Source: a virus (taxonomy: Duplodnaviria > Caudoviricetes). From it: 64,000 nt of DNA. The notes beneath the pieces are model-generated. The model searched no databases and had not been told where the DNA came from. It worked only from the letters and a program-made list of their open reading frames with translations. The translations under genes and the position numbers were made by a program. This document shows, one piece after another, positions 9,899 to 29,348 of the stretch (within the stretch, counting starts at the first letter, position 1; each line of letters starts with the position of its first letter). The DNA lies in IMG/VR virus record IMGVR_UViG_2904200584_000016, positions 6,688 to 70,687 of that record; one strand, 5' to 3'.

Positions 9899-10210
9899 TT
9901 ACAGTAGTTTTTTTAATGTGTTTATTTGTTCTTGAACTATCGTTTTACTCTTAGTGTCTAACTCTCTATAATTGTCTAATAGATTGACTTCTTCTTCTTT
10001 TAGTTGTATATTCTCTTTTAAATCTGTTTTACACAATATATAATCTATACTTACATTGTATATATTAGACAACTCAACTAATTTATCTATATCTATTTTT
10101 CTATTACCATTTTCCCACCTTAAGACACTATTATAAGCTACATTTAGTTTATCAGCTATTTCTTGTATATTATAGCCTCTTTCTTTTCTAACTTCTTTTA
10201 GTCTATTCAT
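9899..10210 (-). CDS. XRE-family repressor
   Basis: RLKEVRKERG...WENGNRKID...NVSIDYILC; CCTTTTCGGT repeats in the adjacent divergent promoter. Confidence 0.9.
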   Translation of the reverse strand: MNRLKEVRKERGYNIQEIADKLNVAYNSVLRWENGNRKIDIDKLVELSNIYNVSIDYILCKTDLKENIQLKEEEVNLLDNYRELDTKSKTIVQEQINTLKKLL

Positions 10211-10781
10211 TTTCCCACCTTCTTTTTTACATTTATAATATCATATGAGATAACTTTAAACAACACCAAAAAGGTTAGTACTATAAAACATTCAAATCCT
10301 TTTCGGTATTATTTTTTATTTTTTATATTGACATACACCCTTTTCGGTTGTATAATTGAATCATAGCAAGGGAGAACAAGAAAACACTAAACCACCTCTC
10401 AAAGAAGTAACAGGCGAAGAACCTTCTTAAAACTCTAAAGCTAAAAATTAATTATACTAGTTGGTGAGGTGTTCCCAACATTAAGTAAGTAAATAAAATT
10501 AATAAAGGTTTCCAGTTTGAGCCTACAAAAATCTGAGGTATCAACAATAGTTGCTTCTAAAATGGCACTCAATACAACTTAATATGACATAGCAGTTGTG
10601 AGGTACTGCGTTATAAAAAGTACTAAAGATTGAGCATTAAAATTATAGTTTGTACTGCTTGACACCTACATGGTTATAAACTATCTAATATTTACTAATA
10701 TAATTTAAACTATTTATTAGATTATTTTAGTAAGTGTTAGAATACAACACTTAAATTATGATATAATAATAAAATAGGAGT

Positions 10782-11093
10782 GTGAACGGCATGGATGAAA
10801 AAATATTAGAGTTATTACAAAAAATGGATACTAGGTTTGACAGAATCGAAAATAGACTAGATAGTATGGATGGTCGTTTTGATGGGATTGAAAACCAACT
10901 TAGTGATTTAAAAGAAGGTCAAGAAGAAATTAAAAAGAAACTAGACTTAACTTATGATCAAGTTGCTAGAAATATGGAAGGTATAACAGAAGTTGGAGAA
11001 AAAATAGACACTTTAAAAAATGACATGAACTTTGTAGAAATGGCTACATCTAAAAATTGGAATGAAATAGCAAAGTTAAAATCAATTAAATAG
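10782..11093 (+). CDS. Coiled-coil heptad-repeat protein
   Basis: RFDRIENRLDSMDGRFDGIE repeats; paralogue of 11920-12261. Confidence 0.7.
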   Translation: MNGMDEKILELLQKMDTRFDRIENRLDSMDGRFDGIENQLSDLKEGQEEIKKKLDLTYDQVARNMEGITEVGEKIDTLKNDMNFVEMATSKNWNEIAKLKSIK

Positions 11094-11104
11094 GAGTAGA
11101 TAAA

Positions 11105-11338
11105 ATGGATGAGAAAACATTAGAATTGCTACGAGAAATACAGGAAAGTATTAAAGTTTTAAATGACAAGCTTGACGAATTTGATTATACACAGGATAAA
11201 ATAAAATCTAATGTTGAGGGACTTTTAGAATGTTTTAGTCGTATTGATTTTAGAATTGAAGACCTAGAAAATGGTCAAACTTCGTTGTATACTAAGCTTG
11301 ATATAGTGCAAAATGAAACAGCAAAATCAATTAAATAG
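11105..11338 (+). CDS. Coiled-coil protein, paralogue of 10782
   Basis: MDEKTLELL...KSIK start and end shared with the upstream gene. Confidence 0.65.
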   Translation: MDEKTLELLREIQESIKVLNDKLDEFDYTQDKIKSNVEGLLECFSRIDFRIEDLENGQTSLYTKLDIVQNETAKSIK

Positions 11339-11434
11339 CAGTACATAAAAAGACATCTTTAATTTAAGGTGTCTTTTATATAACTCTTTAGTATGGTATT
11401 ATTATAGAATAATGATATTCTTGGAGGGAACAAA

Positions 11435-11638
11435 ATGAACTTAGATAGATTAAAAGAATTAAGAGAAAGCAGAGGATACACGCAACAAATGTTAAGCACA
11501 TACATTAATATGTCGACTTCAACTTATAATGATAAGGAAAAGGGTAAAACATCATTTAAAATTGAAGAACTTGAAAAAATAGCTAAATTGCTTAAATTCA
11601 GTAAAGAAGAAATGTTTGAATTACTCGACTTAGACTAA
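11435..11638 (+). CDS. XRE/Cro-type HTH regulator
   Basis: RLKELRESRGYTQQ...YNDKEKGKTSFKIEEL. Confidence 0.9.
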   Translation: MNLDRLKELRESRGYTQQMLSTYINMSTSTYNDKEKGKTSFKIEELEKIAKLLKFSKEEMFELLDLD

Positions 11639-11919
11639 TCGAGTAAAATAAAAAATAAAAATCCGAAAAATACGTTGACAATATTCGTATAAGAATATAT
11701 AATTAAAGTATCAAAACAAATATAGAATCAAATCCAAATCCGAAAAACGCTTTTTAAAAATTCGGATACAATAGTACATTGAAAACTTAATATGACATAG
11801 CAGTTGTGAGGTACTGCATTATCAAAAACACATCAAGTATTTAGTAAAATAATTTATGGATTGTTTTATTAAGTACTTGAATATAGTACTTACATTCATG
11901 TTATAATAATAAAAGGAGT

Positions 11920-12261
11920 GTGGTTATTATGGAAAATAAGATACTAGAATTATTACAAAAAATGGATAGTAGTATTAATGAGATGCAAGGAGAAATAAAA
12001 GGAATTAATACTAGATTTGATGGTATCGACAAGCGATTTGATAGTATTGAAAATAGACTTGATGGTATCGACAAGCGATTTGATAGTATCGAAAATAGAC
12101 TTGATGTCATTGAAAAGAAACAAGATATTTTATATAATCAAGCTATTGCAACGGCTGAAAATATAACAGAAATAAGAGAAGATTTAGGAGATGTACAAGT
12201 CACAACGACATGTAATCTAAATGACTTAAAAGAGTTAAAAAAACTTAAATCAGTTAAATAG
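11920..12261 (+). CDS. Coiled-coil protein with 42-bp tandem repeat
   Basis: DGIDKRFDSIENRL repeated twice. Confidence 0.7.
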   Translation: MVIMENKILELLQKMDSSINEMQGEIKGINTRFDGIDKRFDSIENRLDGIDKRFDSIENRLDVIEKKQDILYNQAIATAENITEIREDLGDVQVTTTCNLNDLKELKKLKSVK

Positions 12262-12355
12262 TAGTACATAAAAAGACACTTGAACTATTGAGTGTCTTTT
12301 ATATAAACTCTTAATATGGTATTATTAAACAATAATATCATTGGAGGTATAACGA

Positions 12356-12544
12356 ATGTATGAGCAGAGAAAAGCAAAAGTAATATTCAATAAAGGAGCT
12401 GGTAATTCTAGGGGAGAATCATATACGAATAGGGTTACAATTCCAACTACATGGATAAAACATATGGACATAACTAAACTAGACAGAGAAGTTTTGTTGA
12501 CTTTTGATGGTAATAAAATAGTAATAGAAAAAATAGATGAGTAG
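12356..12544 (+). CDS. AbrB/MazE-like DNA-binding protein
   Basis: RVTIPTTWIKHMDI...VLLTFDGNKIVIEK swapped-hairpin pattern. Confidence 0.8.
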   Translation: MYEQRKAKVIFNKGAGNSRGESYTNRVTIPTTWIKHMDITKLDREVLLTFDGNKIVIEKIDE

Positions 12545-12668
12545 ATAAAAAATCTACTCAAAAAAAATACTTGACAACTCGTGACGAGTCAATTATAATT
12601 AAATCATAAAATAAAAATTTTTACAAAACGACTAGTAACGAGTCAGTAAAAAAGGGGGGGGCTATAAA

Positions 12669-12710
12669 ATGCTAAATATATACATAACTAATTTAGGGAA
12701 ATATAATTGA
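12669..12710 (+). pseudogene. ardA 5' stub 1 (MLNIYITNLGKYN*)
   Basis: Same 13 residues as the N-terminus of ardA at 13574, with its own RBS. Confidence 0.85.
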
Positions 12711-12777
12711 AATTCCTTTTATATAATTCTCTGATATGATATTATTATTCTATAATAATAATGTTGGAGGGGACAAA

Positions 12778-12969
12778 GTGAAATTATATCTATTAAGAGA
12801 AATAAGAGAAGAAAAAAAATATTCACAAGAAGATGTTGCAAGAGGTATAAACATTTCATTGCGTTCTTATGTAAGAAAAGAAAAAGGAGAACGTGAATTT
12901 TCAATATCTGAATTTGAACGATTAATAACTTTTTTAGACATTGATGCAAATACTTTATTAGAAAAATAA
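12778..12969 (+). CDS. XRE/Cro-type HTH regulator
   Basis: GTG start after GGAGG; IREEKKYSQEDVA...RKEKGEREFSISEF. Confidence 0.9.
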   Translation: MKLYLLREIREEKKYSQEDVARGINISLRSYVRKEKGEREFSISEFERLITFLDIDANTLLEK

Positions 12970-13109
12970 TAAAAATTTTTAAAAAAATGTATGACCAAAT
13001 AGACTTGACAACATGGACTTAATGAATTATAATTAAATTAAGAAAAGGGAAAGCTTTAAATTAATATACGACCAAATAGTCATAAGATAAATGAAAGGGG
13101 GATATAAAA

Positions 13110-13151
13110 ATGCTAAAAATATATATAGCTAACTTAGGAAAGTATAATTGA
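13110..13151 (+). pseudogene. ardA 5' stub 2 (MLKIYIANLGKYN*)
   Basis: Variant allele of the ardA N-terminus with the same breakpoint as stub 1. Confidence 0.85.
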
Positions 13152-13218
13152 AATTCCTTTTATATAGTTCTCTAATATGATATTATTATTCTATAATAAT
13201 ATTACTAGGAGGTATGAC

Positions 13219-13416
13219 ATGAATTTAGCTAGACTTAAAGAGTTAAGAGTAGAAAAGAAGTTTACACAACAACAATTAAGTACTGCTATAGGAATAACTT
13301 TTAAAACATATTCAAAAAAAGAAAATGGACATAGAGAGTTTACAATTAGTGAGTTTGAAAAGATTTGCTTTGTATTAGATATAGAACCATCTGAGTTATT
13401 AGAAATAGAAATGTAA
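13219..13416 (+). CDS. XRE/Cro-type HTH regulator
   Basis: RLKELRVEKKFTQQQL...KKENGHREFTISEF; AGGAGG RBS. Confidence 0.9.
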   Translation: MNLARLKELRVEKKFTQQQLSTAIGITFKTYSKKENGHREFTISEFEKICFVLDIEPSELLEIEM

Positions 13417-13573
13417 AAATTTTTTAATAAAATATCTGCAAAAACATATTGCATTATTGGCGAATGTATAATATAATAAAATCAAGAAAAGTACAAAAGG
13501 GAATAATAATAAAATATAACTCGCCATTTTTACCATATTAAATAAGCGAATAATTAAAAGGGAGGATATAAAA

Positions 13574-14287
13574 ATGCTAAATATATACATAACTAATTTA
13601 GGGAAATATAACGAAGGCGAACTAATAGGGGAATGGGCTAAACTTCCAATAGATAAGGAAGAATTACAAGAAATATTAAATAGAATAGGGATAAATGAAG
13701 AATATGAAGAGTATTTCATAACAGATTTTGAAACAGATATAGAAGGGTTAAAAATAAGTGAATATAGCAATATAGAGCAACTGAATGAATTAGCAAAGGA
13801 ACTTGAGGGGTTAGAAGAATATGAAGTTGAACAGCTAAAGGCTTTGCTTGAACATGGATACATTGATTTTTATGACATGCTTGAAGGGGATATTTGCAGA
13901 CTATCAGATAATTATACTTTTATACAACTTGATGACAGGTCATCATTGGATGATGAAAATTTAGGACGTAGTTATATAGAAGAAATATGTTATGGTGATT
14001 TATCTTGTATAGAAAATATTGATTACTACTTTGACATAGAAGCCTTTTCAAGAGATTTACGTTTTGATAAAGACATAATTATTGAAGATTTAGACGAAGA
14101 AAATATAGAATATTATGAAAATATGACAGATATTGAATTTGCAGAGAATTATATTGAACAATTAGGAGATATTGAAGAGTTAGGTCAAGAAACACTTGAA
14201 AAATACTTTGATTATGAGTTGTATGGAAGAGACTTGCGTTATGAGGGTATTTGCATAGCATCAAATTATTTAGCTATAGTTTTTTAA
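13574..14287 (+). CDS. ardA: ArdA antirestriction protein (DNA mimic)
   Basis: IYITNLGKYNEGELIGEW, EEYFITDFE, YFDYELYGRDL; very acidic; duplicated C-terminal module. Confidence 0.92.
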   Translation: MLNIYITNLGKYNEGELIGEWAKLPIDKEELQEILNRIGINEEYEEYFITDFETDIEGLKISEYSNIEQLNELAKELEGLEEYEVEQLKALLEHGYIDFYDMLEGDICRLSDNYTFIQLDDRSSLDDENLGRSYIEEICYGDLSCIENIDYYFDIEAFSRDLRFDKDIIIEDLDEENIEYYENMTDIEFAENYIEQLGDIEELGQETLEKYFDYELYGRDLRYEGICIASNYLAIVF

Positions 14288-14508
14288 ATTAAAAGTTTTA
14301 GGGCGTTCTTTAAAAACGCCACTTCCAATAAAAAAAATTGAAAGGGGAATAAATCATGAAAAAATTAATAATCAAGATAAAATCATTGTTTAAAAAGGAT
14401 TTAGATAGTAGCTATTGGAGTACTACAGAAAGTATTATTTTAAAATGTGGAAACAGCAATCAATTAGAATTATTGAAACAATCTAATAAATTATAAGGAG
14501 GTAATAAC

Positions 14509-14745
14509 ATGATAAATTATTCTGAATATATGACTGCAACAGATTTAATAAATATATGTGACCTTTTAGAAAGTAAAACAATAGGAGAGCCGGGGACTTA
14601 TAATTCTTTAAGTACTAGACTGAGCAATTTAATTGGGTTGGATTGGGCTCTAAAAGGAGAAGAACTGAGACAGCAATTAATACAAAATATTAATAATATG
14701 ATGTATTTAGATAATGAAAATAAAATTCAATATAAAGAATTTTAA
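14509..14745 (+). CDS. Hypothetical protein
   Basis: ORF with AGGAGG RBS. Confidence 0.65.
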   Translation: MINYSEYMTATDLINICDLLESKTIGEPGTYNSLSTRLSNLIGLDWALKGEELRQQLIQNINNMMYLDNENKIQYKEF

Positions 14746-14805
14746 ATAATTTAAGTAAATAAAATTCAACTTTTAAGTTGATATAAAACAATAGGAGGAT
14801 TAAAA

Positions 14806-15417
14806 ATGAAAAAAATATTATTATTTGAAGGTGCTGGAATGGATATTTATGAAGAGGGTTCAGATGTTGGAAATCATAGAATTAGAACCGCTTTTATAAA
14901 TGGTAATGGAGATAAAATATATTTAGAGCTAGAAGGAAATATACAGAATTGTAAAATTTCAAAAAGATTTGGGTGGTATACACATATTGACCATTGTTTT
15001 AACATTAGTATGTCGACTGATGAAAATGTTTCAAGCATAAAATTGAATAATACATTTTTCAATGGCTATTCAAAAAGTGACTTAACAAAATATATAAACA
15101 AAAATTTTAATTGTAAGTTTGACACTATAGAGGTTTTAGACTGGATGGAAGGCTACAGAGTGCATGGGAATAGAAATGAATACAATTTGATGGACGACCA
15201 TGAGTTGAACAGAAAAAGAACTATAGCAAGAAATAAAGCTTATGAAAAAATAGATAAAGAAATAAGAGAAAAATTAGGAGAAAAATATTCTAAAATAAGT
15301 CTTTACTCTATGGATGAGGACTCTATAACTATTAGATGTTATACATATGAAAAAGATTTATATAAAATAGGCATGAGTGAAGATAATAGATTATTAAAAA
15401 TACCAGTTAATTATTAG
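14806..15417 (+). CDS. Hypothetical protein (LFEGAG...RIRTAF N-terminus)
   Basis: ORF with AGGAGG RBS. Confidence 0.7.
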   Translation: MKKILLFEGAGMDIYEEGSDVGNHRIRTAFINGNGDKIYLELEGNIQNCKISKRFGWYTHIDHCFNISMSTDENVSSIKLNNTFFNGYSKSDLTKYINKNFNCKFDTIEVLDWMEGYRVHGNRNEYNLMDDHELNRKRTIARNKAYEKIDKEIREKLGEKYSKISLYSMDEDSITIRCYTYEKDLYKIGMSEDNRLLKIPVNY

Positions 15418-25947: not shown

Positions 25948-27126
25948 ATGCAAGAATTAAAACCAGTTGCTAGAATATCAAAGTCAAAATTAAAAGATAT
26001 ATTAGATGTTTTTAAAACTTCTATAAGAAAAGTAGAAAAAATAGATTATTCTGCTTGTAATTCTTGTGCAATAAAAAATAATCCTTCTTTTGATAGTAAT
26101 AAATTAAATGAATTTTGTTCAAATTGTCCTAAATTAAAAACTATATCAGAGTTTTCTTATGTTACAGAAAAGGAAACAGAACTAGGTACAATAGAAATTG
26201 TAACTAATGAAAGTAAATGTATGGCTTTAAGTAAAAGTGCTATAAAACAGTATTTAGCATATCATTTTATAGTATCTAATAAAAATTATGTTAGAAAAGC
26301 AGTATCCTTCCAAAACATAGCCGATATATGTAATGTTTCCGTTGTTACAGCCAGACATAACCATAATGTATTACTACAAGTTGGATTAGTTTATTCTACA
26401 GAAATAAAAAGAGGTAAATTTGATATAGTCATAGATGAAGAGTACAAAAACCATCTTAAAAAAGAAGATGGTGGAAAAGGTTACTTAACTATGTCATTAG
26501 ATACTTTAAATCACTTATTAAGTTTTGAAAATGTAAATGAGTTAAAACTTGAAATTAAAAAATTAATTTGGGCTGATGCTAAAGGAAGTAAGTTAGGTAA
26601 AAGAATACGATTTAAAAAAGACAATCTTATTTCTATACTTCCAGAATACATAAAGAAATCAAACAAGCGTACAGAAGCTTTTTTAAGAAGTTCTAAAACT
26701 TTATTTGATGTAAGTAATGACACAATAGATACAAAGCGTTATGAGACGAAAGAAACTATCTCAGAGAAATATACAGAACCAATTAGAATACAAATATCGA
26801 AATTCTTTGATAATACTGGTTGCTCTTTGAGTTCTAATTATAGTAAAGTGTTATCTCAGATAAATTTAGATAGATATAATTTATTTGAAGAAGATTTAAG
26901 AAGTAAATTAGACATGGAAAAAGATATTATTATAAATGACTTAGTTGGATTGTCGGTGCAGTATGGAGTTACTAGAGTTTTAGCAGCATTAGATTATATG
27001 TTTAATAAATATACAGTTGATGAAGAAGATATAAATTATAATGAAATACGTAATCCTGGTGCGTTTATAAGAACATTGATTGTTCAGAGCATAAATAAAA
27101 ATGGAAGTTTAGCAATAGCAATTTAA
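25948..27126 (+). CDS. Replication-associated protein (CxxC..CxxC, wHTH, C-terminal IRNPGAFI motif)
   Basis: SFQNIADICNVSVVTA HTH; C-terminus resembles DnaD/RepC-type helical domains. Confidence 0.5.
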   Translation: MQELKPVARISKSKLKDILDVFKTSIRKVEKIDYSACNSCAIKNNPSFDSNKLNEFCSNCPKLKTISEFSYVTEKETELGTIEIVTNESKCMALSKSAIKQYLAYHFIVSNKNYVRKAVSFQNIADICNVSVVTARHNHNVLLQVGLVYSTEIKRGKFDIVIDEEYKNHLKKEDGGKGYLTMSLDTLNHLLSFENVNELKLEIKKLIWADAKGSKLGKRIRFKKDNLISILPEYIKKSNKRTEAFLRSSKTLFDVSNDTIDTKRYETKETISEKYTEPIRIQISKFFDNTGCSLSSNYSKVLSQINLDRYNLFEEDLRSKLDMEKDIIINDLVGLSVQYGVTRVLAALDYMFNKYTVDEEDINYNEIRNPGAFIRTLIVQSINKNGSLAIAI

Positions 27127-28039: not shown

Positions 28040-28387
28040 TTACTTCCTATTTTCTTCCTCTAAAAAAACCTCAGCTACATTGTATAATCTTTTTTGTGCT
28101 TCTGGACTTAATTTACTTATCATTCTTAACATTTCTTTAATATCATCATCAAAATCCATATCTAAAGTTGGGTCTTGAAATATATCCCCTTCTCCTGTTC
28201 TTAACCAATTTTCGTTTACATTAAATTCTTTGCATATATCATTGATTATTCTATCTGTTAAATCTCTCCTACCTGTTTCTAGAGAGGAAATGTGGTCTTG
28301 AGATAGAAATAATTTATTTCCCATCTGTGTTTGATTCAGCCCTAATTCTTTTCTTAAAGTTTTCAATCTTTTATTCAATATTATCAC
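28040..28387 (-). CDS. XRE-family phage repressor
   Basis: RLKTLRKELGLNQ...ISSLETGRR...NVNENWLRTGEG. Confidence 0.9.
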   Translation of the reverse strand: MIILNKRLKTLRKELGLNQTQMGNKLFLSQDHISSLETGRRDLTDRIINDICKEFNVNENWLRTGEGDIFQDPTLDMDFDDDIKEMLRMISKLSPEAQKRLYNVAEVFLEEENRK

Positions 28388-28419
28388 CTCCCTCTTTAAA
28401 ATATATTATCATATAAAAT

Positions 28420-28522
28420 ATGTCTTTGCAATAAAATTGATATAAAATATGTCAAAAACATATTACCTGTTGACAATATGCTAATGACATAATATAATTT
28501 AAATATGAAATGTCAAAGACAT
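28420..28522. promoter_or_regulatory. Four ATGTC-N3-GACAT-type operators over divergent promoters
   Basis: Sites at 28420, 28449, 28478, 28510 (last one perfect), ~30-bp period. Confidence 0.75.
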
Positions 28523-28834: not shown

Positions 28835-29188
28835 TTATTTTTTTAATTCACTATTAGTATCATTTTGAATTTTTAATAATCCATCTATCTGGCTTAATAC
28901 AAATTCTTTGTATTCATATTTCAATAATTTGTATTTTTCAAGTAATTGTTTATTTAGATAATCTGATTTATTTATGTCTTTTTCATCAACTTCATCATCC
29001 AATAAGTAATCTAATGAACAATTAAATACATCACATATAAGTTTTGCTTTTTGAATAGAAAGGTTTTTCGTCTTTCCATTTATTATATCAGATAGTGTAG
29101 AAGTTGGAATTTTAGTTTTAACAGAAATATCTGTTAATGTTAACCCACTATTATTTATTAAAAATTTTATCTTTTTTCCTATGTTCAT
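28835..29188 (-). CDS. XRE-family repressor (second switch)
   Basis: IGKKIKFL...PTSTLSDIING...CSLDYLL. Confidence 0.88.
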   Translation of the reverse strand: MNIGKKIKFLINNSGLTLTDISVKTKIPTSTLSDIINGKTKNLSIQKAKLICDVFNCSLDYLLDDEVDEKDINKSDYLNKQLLEKYKLLKYEYKEFVLSQIDGLLKIQNDTNSELKK

Positions 29189-29348
29189 ATCAACATCCTC
29201 CTCTATAAATTTATGATAACATAATTTCGATAATCCGTAAAGAAGTTTATTAAAAATTTAAAAAACATGATAAATAGATTGACTTATTCGGAAAAACGGA
29301 ATATAATATAAATATATCCGAAAAAACGAATAAAGAAGGTGGAGATTT

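Follow-up and report, generated by a model that had tools for sequence, protein, structure and literature searches.

Organisation of the cassette region

We analysed a 64,000-nucleotide stretch of a tailed-phage genome (IMG/VR record IMGVR_UViG_2904200584_000016, positions 6,688 to 70,687; below, the window), in which four small regulatory cassettes lie in tandem on the + strand between a divergently transcribed repressor gene and ardA, predicted from sequence to encode an anti-restriction protein. Each cassette contains a conserved leader, a small regulator gene and a sigma-A promoter. Three of the regulators carry an XRE helix-turn-helix (HTH) and one has the AbrB/MazE fold, in the order XRE1, AbrB-type, XRE3 and XRE4. 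A 5-kb query (9400-14400) matched only Clostridioides records, 9 of phages and 7 of plasmids (identity 86-95%), including phiCD211, phiCDIF1296T, AR1086-1 and C. difficile plasmids of about 130 kb. The best records cover 63-64% of the query and none reaches 80%, so the cassette region is mosaic among close relatives. The genes detected elsewhere in the window (ParM-like, ribonucleotide reductase, DNA polymerase III alpha, Erf, ThyX-like and anti-repressor) fit a large phage-plasmid, and the window is, as judged by its similarities, part of a phiCD211/phiCDIF1296T-like C. difficile phage-plasmid.

The sequence-only reading of this DNA had listed four small DNA-binding genes, starting at 11435, 12356, 12778 and 13219, behind a shared leader. 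All four genes and leaders were found at these positions, and the leaders align with one another. Leader 1 (11373..11434) consists of an extended -10 promoter, TTTATA-16-TG.TATTAT, an AT palindrome and a ribosome-binding site (RBS), and precedes the XRE1 regulator (67 aa, 11435..11638). Leader 2 (12296..12355) precedes the AbrB/MazE-fold regulator (62 aa, 12356..12544), leader 3 (12716..12777) the XRE3 regulator (63 aa, GTG start, 12778..12969) and leader 4 (13157..13218) the XRE4 regulator (65 aa, 13219..13416); these three leaders were recognised by alignment with the others and by the promoter scan. All four scan as TTTATA-16-TATTAT with a preceding TG, which makes them extended -10 promoters, and TG.TATTAT is kept in 17/17 aligned distinct leader variants from relatives. 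XRE1, XRE3 and XRE4 match the XRE/Cro-C1 HTH family (Pfam HTH_3, PF01381; cut-off 23 bits) with 49.8, 41.2 and 45.3 bits. The XRE proteins are paralogues, with 37-77% identity between classes.

That an AbrB-type gene fills the same slot as the XRE genes was borne out by homologue matches, profile-to-PDB comparison and the predicted fold. The 62-aa protein itself scored 16.5 bits against Pfam MazE_antitoxin, below the cut-off of 24.7, and an NCBIfam search with it gave no match. The HMMER search detected 252 homologues at E<=0.001 (another homologue search found 4), and 27/48 sampled homologues matched MazE_antitoxin at E<=0.01. Compared with the PDB, the family profile hit AbrB chains only, the six best at E 0.017-0.13. 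The AlphaFold2 model (predicted local distance difference test score 90.3) has the element order E-E-H-E-E, and its nearest Foldseek neighbours are MazE, AbrB, SpoVT and VapB, with probability 0.99, a template-modelling score of 0.62 and no E-value below 0.1. Because of the MazE_antitoxin matches of the homologues, the AbrB-only profile hits and the structural likeness of the model, it is reasonable to call this regulator AbrB-type, with a predicted beta-beta-alpha-beta-beta swapped-hairpin fold. One homologue, P0005, is a protein of 1341 aa with ten stretches matching the 62-aa domain.

Promoters and candidate operators

Perfect TTGACA-N17-TATAAT promoters occur six times in the window against 0.06 expected, a number reached in 0/100 shuffles, and each of the six lies next to an HTH or AbrB-type gene. 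A -35-17-TATAAT promoter had been proposed behind each of the four genes. It is perfect at 11675, 12571 and 13005, as well as at 10328 in front of the cassettes, but the fourth, at 13449, is TTGCAT-17-TATAAT; its -35 matches 3/6 consensus positions, and the promoter scan did not list it.

The candidate operators lie on and just behind these promoters, all on the + strand, and the repeats were evaluated with 1000 dinucleotide-preserving shuffles per intergenic region, scoring the best direct repeat. Behind XRE1, promoter P1 (11675-11703; region 11659..11767) has operator copies at 11661-11690 and 11738-11767, 77 nt apart, each of the form ATCCGAA-N16-TTCGkAT; the repeat AAATCCGAAAAA at 11659 and 11736 was equalled in 8/1000 shuffles. 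P2 (12571-12599; region 12571..12643), behind the AbrB-type gene, carries the palindrome ACTCGTGACGAGT in its spacer (12577-12589; ACTCGT-G-ACGAGT) and ACTAGTAACGAGT at 12631-12643, a pair matched in 25/1000 shuffles. P3 (13005-13033; region 12991..13083), behind XRE3, is accompanied by ATGACCAAATAGACTT (12991) and ACGACCAAATAGTCAT (13068), again 77 nt apart, with the repeat GACCAAATAG at 12993 and 13070 (3/1000). The downstream XRE3 site of one relative (L017) is a perfect ATGACC-AAAC-GGTCAT. In P4 (13449-13477; region 13449..13551), behind XRE4, we detected TGGCGAAT (13458), CTCGCCAT (13520) and AAGCGAAT (13544).

The repeats had been described as module-specific. Four of the five sets, that of P0 (below) included, beat the shuffles, but the XRE4 set does not: the best repeat in the region of TGGCGA/TCGCCA (13458 and 13521) was matched in 198/1000 shuffles and is not significant alone. 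Support for the XRE4 set comes from relatives, in which TGGCGA, CTCGCC and AAGCGAAT are largely kept and one of which (L011) has a perfect TCGCC-N5-GGCGA. Within the 64 kb the motifs are confined to their own cassette, except that the 8-mer AAGCGAAT recurs twice elsewhere. The placement is constant: one copy always lies over the -35 or spacer and the second about 26-57 nt past the expected start, just before the RBS.

Pairing of regulators and operators among relatives

The comparison set comprised ten annotated relatives (L001-L010) and IMG/VR contigs collected via ArdA (L011-L045) or via the leader pattern (L046-L125); the pairing counts draw on about 30 related phages and contigs. We counted 31 cassettes with a leader in the window and L001-L022, encoding 16 different regulator sequences; seven further contigs add 9, which gives 40 cassettes in nine regulator classes (XRE1, XREb, XREc, XRE3, XRE4, AbrB-a, AbrB-a', AbrB-b and AbrB-c). 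At least 20 full-leader matches were found among the 80 loci collected with the leader pattern in IMG/VR, and no new class was seen among the matches listed. In 38/40 cassettes the regulator is followed by its own class-specific operator promoter, whatever the neighbours. The other two (L005 and L070) are AbrB-type cassettes in which the promoter and downstream operator are deleted (L005:4300-4370), and therefore internal cassettes can decay.

The operator pair differs from class to class in sequence; the spacing between its two copies is given with each. The XRE1 class has AAATCCGAAAAA twice (spacing 77), the XREb class TCGTAAAATCG twice (74), the XREc class AAAACCGAAAAATCGTT twice (73) and the XRE3 class ATGACCAAA.. 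twice (77). Among the AbrB-type regulators, the AbrB-a class has ACTCGTGACGAGT / ACTAGTAACGAGT (54), the AbrB-b class TCATTCGGACAGAA twice (59) and the AbrB-c class TATTCGTAACGAG twice (59). XREd, with ACCGAAAT twice (75), has no recognised leader and stands outside the 40 cassettes and nine classes.

The neighbours of a given pair change from relative to relative. The AbrB-a promoter is followed by ardA in L001, L008, L013, L015 and L016, by XRE3 in the window, by XREc in L002 and L012 and by XRE4 in L014, while XRE3 and its promoter stand directly before full-length ardA in L017-L019. In L006 another XRE with another operator precedes the same coiled-coil gene (89% identical). The window combines XRE1-AbrBa-XRE3-XRE4 and L011 combines XRE1-AbrBc-XREc-XRE4; most others have 1-2 cassettes. 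Since the neighbours change and the pair stays constant, the operator is tied to the upstream regulator, and the downstream regulator is ruled out. The linkage thus supports cognate repressor-operator pairs in which the putative repressor belongs to the promoter downstream of its gene, not upstream.

A covariation check of regulators against operators was positive as well, similar putative recognition helices going with similar motifs. With 69% identity and the helix motif STSTY in both, XRE1 and XREc also share CCGAAAAA in their operators; XRE3 and XRE0, a paralogue encoded upstream of the cassettes, both contain ISLR.Y.RKE and both go with TGAC-N6-GTCA half-sites. The residues named here are those that we infer to form the recognition helix. 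This likeness among the XRE classes supports co-evolution of protein and site. The three AbrB classes diverge mainly at residues 10-22, a and c at 11/62 positions as counted by eye.

The support for this pattern comes from the phiCD211 group; distant ArdA loci were compared as well. Of 25 such loci examined (3 duplicates; the known relative L020 included, which L021 repeats), only L022, beyond L020/L021, has a small same-strand open reading frame (ORF) and a palindrome-bearing promoter before ardA, and this ORF has no Pfam match. At the ardA promoter of L023, L027 and L045 there are paired ACTCA..TGAGT palindromes, but no adjacent regulator.

Remnants of ardA and the origin of the array

Full-length ardA (237 aa, 13574..14287, + strand) matches Pfam ArdA with 142.5 bits against a cut-off of 27 and the anti-restriction family phrog_2059 at E 8.7e-49. 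We found that cassettes 2 and 3 end in truncated copies of its start, RBS included, which the sequence-only reading had missed; both are on the + strand and in each a stop follows 13 codons. The first (MLNIYITNLGKYN, 12669..12710) has 38 nt identical to 13574-13611, and the second (MLKIYIANLGKYN, 13110..13151) is a diverged copy of the ardA 5' end. Homology to ardA ends in these stumps after ...AAATATAA, where the next leader starts. Aligned with one another, the regions 3' of the regulators have a common scaffold of -35, -10+TAAA, RBS and ardA 5' end, with just two variable blocks, around the -35/spacer and near +30. From these stumps and the common scaffold it follows that each cassette once directly headed ardA and was stacked later; the array is, on this comparison, evidently a stack of cassettes that each once sat right before ardA. 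Relatives would exchange cassettes through recombination within the leaders and ardA-5' sequences that they have in common, and with recombination at these flanks a promoter would never travel without its repressor. The leader and ardA-5' "linkers" flanking the cassettes may thus offer a simple recombination route for swapping and stacking regulatory units.

The ardA slot of L003 (3850-4107), L004, L006, L009 (4941-5198) and L010 encodes an 85-aa protein that is 46% identical to ArdA residues 146-228 (of 237), i.e. a stand-alone C-terminal third, which recalls the small ArdA proteins described in the available part of PMC12548430.

Upstream region, coiled-coil genes and transcripts

The array is preceded by two further HTH genes. 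The perfect consensus promoter at 8994..9022 (+ strand) contains the palindrome TGACAAATTTGTCA, which is the candidate XRE0 site. Downstream of this promoter come two very short ORFs, of 52 and 33 aa and without a Pfam match, and then XRE0 (63 aa, 9490..9681, + strand; HTH_3, 38.7 bits). XRE0 is 100% identical in six relatives, and everything to its right is mosaic. The divergent XRE repressor (103 aa, 9899..10210, - strand; HTH_3, 53.1 bits) is annotated RepR in phiCD211. A 31-nt inverted repeat (9718-9786) between the convergent XRE0 and repressor genes resembles a two-way terminator.

The sequence-only reading had also assigned a repeat of its own to the promoter at 10328 facing this repressor. 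We confirmed it: P0 (region 10265..10356, + strand; TTGACA 10328, TATAAT 10356) carries CCTTTTCGGT at 10298 and 10339, a repeat equalled in 3/1000 shuffles, and an inverted 1-mismatch copy at 10265. Copies of this 10-mer with one mismatch are also present at 26164 and 44169. The C-terminal half of the repressor is conserved and the N-terminal HTH variable; the HTH alleles co-vary with the P0 spacer (14 loci, five alleles, five spacers), and TTAAACGTCG is common to the two closest alleles. Two further divergent HTH_3 repressor genes, in the regions 28040-28500 and 28835-29340, face strong promoters (perfect at 28470; 11/12 match near 29280), with repeats private to each, ATATGTC/GACATA and TCCGAAAAAACG-like.

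The + strand also encodes three small coiled-coil proteins of phrog_5553, a family of unknown function, which contain RFD.IE.RLD-type repeats. Two of the genes (10782/10791-11093 and 11105-11338) follow a box in the conserved 5' untranslated region (UTR) with the hairpin GCAGT..ACTGC (10576..10619), and the third (11920/11929-12261) follows a second box (11784-11827) behind P1. The two 44-nt boxes are 95% identical, and long and short forms are conserved in relatives. A TGnTATAAT element adjoins the RBS of coiled-coil genes at 10759-10767 and 11898-11906. The Rfam search of 9000-15000 gave a single sub-threshold Histone3 match (E 0.86), and the UTR box and leaders match no known RNA family.

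The RNA data were Logan contigs of relatives' libraries (shares <=0.18), none from the window phage itself. The X2 contigs run from the coiled-coil genes, with a junction from 11339 to 12263, into leader 2 and the AbrB gene; other contigs contain the XRE1 gene (X9), XRE0-RepR with the P0 UTR (X5) and ardA (X2, X5), and 12573-13407 was covered by no RNA run. At their loose ends the contigs show that in those strains ardA directly follows operators of the XREc and AbrB-a types, which independently confirms the variety of cassettes. Word depth was 2.4-5 for ardA contigs and 520-4296 for coiled-coil/AbrB contigs, contig depth being a measure that cannot rank genes. The low depth of ardA would fit a silent ardA promoter, a hint that we do not count as evidence.

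Proposed regulation and its alternatives

Taken together, these data suggest that this stretch heads the rightward early operon in a phiCD211-like phage-plasmid and that the regulators probably repress their own downstream promoters, the cassettes being self-contained stacked units that produce a burst on entry and then shut off. Each regulator, made from its leader promoter and by read-through, would repress the next promoter via the two operator copies, presumably as a dimer. On entry into a cell without these regulators all promoters would fire, as in the zygotic induction that the sequence-only reading had put forward, giving a burst of ArdA and early gene products; the regulators would then accumulate and shut the promoters, which would stay off in the established plasmid state. 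Binding, repression and the timing of the burst are in this proposal predicted from the arrangement of genes and sites. The scan found no + strand terminator-like site between 9000 and 15000, so all promoters may read into ardA and the early genes; each promoter would then need a repressor of its own, which explains the tight linkage. The proposal is a concrete and testable scheme by which the anti-restriction and early genes of a large C. difficile phage-plasmid could be timed.

Several observations weigh against this proposal. The XRE4 repeats are non-significant within the window alone, and the P4 -35 is poor. Autoregulation is not indicated, as none of the leaders contains a cassette motif. 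At present just 13-codon stumps and the next regulator lie under the control of P2 and P3, and two relatives have lost such a promoter. The deep coiled-coil contigs after P0 suggest that some regions behind strong promoters are not silent in the resident state, a depth that the internal TGnTATAAT by the coiled-coil RBS could explain. The gap between regulator and operator is about 40 bp, and co-inheritance could reflect adjacency and recombination at the conserved flanks. Of the orthogonal repressor-operator pairs that the sequence-only reading had envisaged, cognate pairing is supported by the 38/40 linkage, but full orthogonality is doubtful for some pairs: XRE0 and XRE3 share TGAC-N6-GTCA, and XRE1, XREc and RepR share a CCGAAAA core. 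With half-sites and cores common to several classes, "private" need not mean fully orthogonal.

The mechanistic alternatives are much less likely. One alternative is that each strong promoter is controlled by the regulator behind it, in the manner of a classical autoregulated operon. Read-through from P2 and P3, which in the absence of a detected + strand terminator would transcribe XRE3 and XRE4, would agree with this, and XRE0 does follow a palindrome-bearing promoter; but the AbrB-a operator promoter is unchanged before XRE3, XREc, XRE4 or ardA, and the promoter ahead of XRE3 and of XRE4 varies from relative to relative. We rejected such control as contradicted by the linkage across relatives and regard it as very improbable. 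Slightly less improbable, though still unlikely, is that the repeats arose by chance or as scars of recombination and that the small proteins have another regulatory target or act as antitoxins of toxin-antitoxin pairs. The AT-rich sequence, the one non-significant motif set, the annotation of one relative's gene as PemI and weak antitoxin-family matches would agree with this; it is at odds with the four of five repeat sets that beat the shuffles, with motif positions that are constant across cassettes while the sequences differ, and with the dyad symmetry over the -35/spacer. A type II toxin-antitoxin arrangement was rejected, as between a regulator and whichever comes next, a leader or ardA, there is no + strand ORF of >=30 aa, but a promoter and, in cassettes 2 and 3, a 13-codon stump. 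Activators of transcription do occur among XRE and AbrB-family proteins. Activation of the neighbouring promoters is nevertheless the least probable of these alternatives, the promoters being already 12/12 consensus and the sites lying over the -35/spacer or past the start, positions typical of repression.

A different selective purpose, compatible with the repression proposed above, would be competition between related phage-plasmids. Resident regulators would silence, in trans, the matching ardA and early promoters of incomers, and an incomer with extra unmatched promoters would escape, which would select for diversification and stacking. The nine regulator/operator classes on one promoter scaffold, the cassette combinations shuffled among relatives and the equally allele-rich divergent repressor, as in heteroimmune phages, speak for this view, but neutral recombination could also give the diversity, and stacked internal promoters have decayed in two relatives. 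We suggest only tentatively that competition of this kind has shaped the array, which could possibly be read as a record of an arms race between phage-plasmids, with the cassettes as portable immunity units of a promoter and its private repressor. If this were true, stacking would let an incomer express ArdA and early genes from any unsilenced promoter and let a resident silence more kinds of incomer, anti-restriction would be gated by a combinatorial immunity code, and the cassettes would make up a naturally occurring set of repressor-operator pairs, mutually orthogonal and built on a single promoter scaffold.

Relation to known systems

Allele-specific repressor-operator sets are a feature of the immunity regions of heteroimmune lambdoid phages. 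The locus resembles these in the divergent repressor, the several operator copies and the allele-operator covariation among relatives; the difference is that the window adds a tandem same-strand series of further repressor-promoter units.

Repressor-gated establishment genes are known from plasmids. As the available text of PMC6294495 describes it, Reg576 of the Bacillus pumilus plasmid p576 represses establishment genes (ardC and others), and the likeness lies in anti-restriction/establishment promoters with short repeats that are bound by a plasmid-encoded repressor and de-repressed on entry until the repressor accumulates. Reg576 is, in the same text, one autoregulated ribbon-helix-helix protein acting on four promoters through one motif, whereas the cassettes have several HTH/AbrB-fold proteins with a private motif each, encoded upstream behind a shared leader in a tandem stack. 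A regulon of the Reg576 type has the same motif at several promoters, its own included; here each motif is found at one promoter and none in the leaders. ArdK of plasmid R388 is, in the accessible part of PMC9723621, an HTH repressor that also acts on establishment promoters through repeats. It differs as a KorA-family protein that serves five promoters as one regulator, with no sequence relation to the cassette proteins and no stacking in what the source presents. Mosaic establishment operons are described, in the available portion, in a study of the pLS20 family.

The sequence-only reading had compared the cassettes with Aca control of acr operons, a comparison that fits the logic but not the architecture. 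In the parts of the Aca literature available (PMC13551039, PMC8633003), Aca repressors of acr-aca operons are small regulators tied to an anti-defence gene, with a promoter site and a burst-then-shut-off logic, and Aca1 has a second motif just past the transcription start, comparable to the downstream operator copy of the cassettes. In those sources acr and aca share one autoregulated operon in which aca follows acr, whereas the cassette regulator, behind its own leader and promoter, precedes the promoter that it would control, and the cargo is ArdA rather than an anti-CRISPR.

A description of such an array was not found in the literature searched, as far as its available text goes and supplements apart, the phiCD5763 paper (PMC5786514) included. 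The common consensus promoter scaffold, with up to nine candidate repressor/operator pairs, may be a source of regulatory parts for Clostridia and other Firmicutes. In comparison with Reg576, ArdK and Aca, the repressor-gated anti-restriction logic would be the known component, and what appears to be new is a tandem array in which private repressors are numerous and each repressor gene precedes the promoter that it would control.

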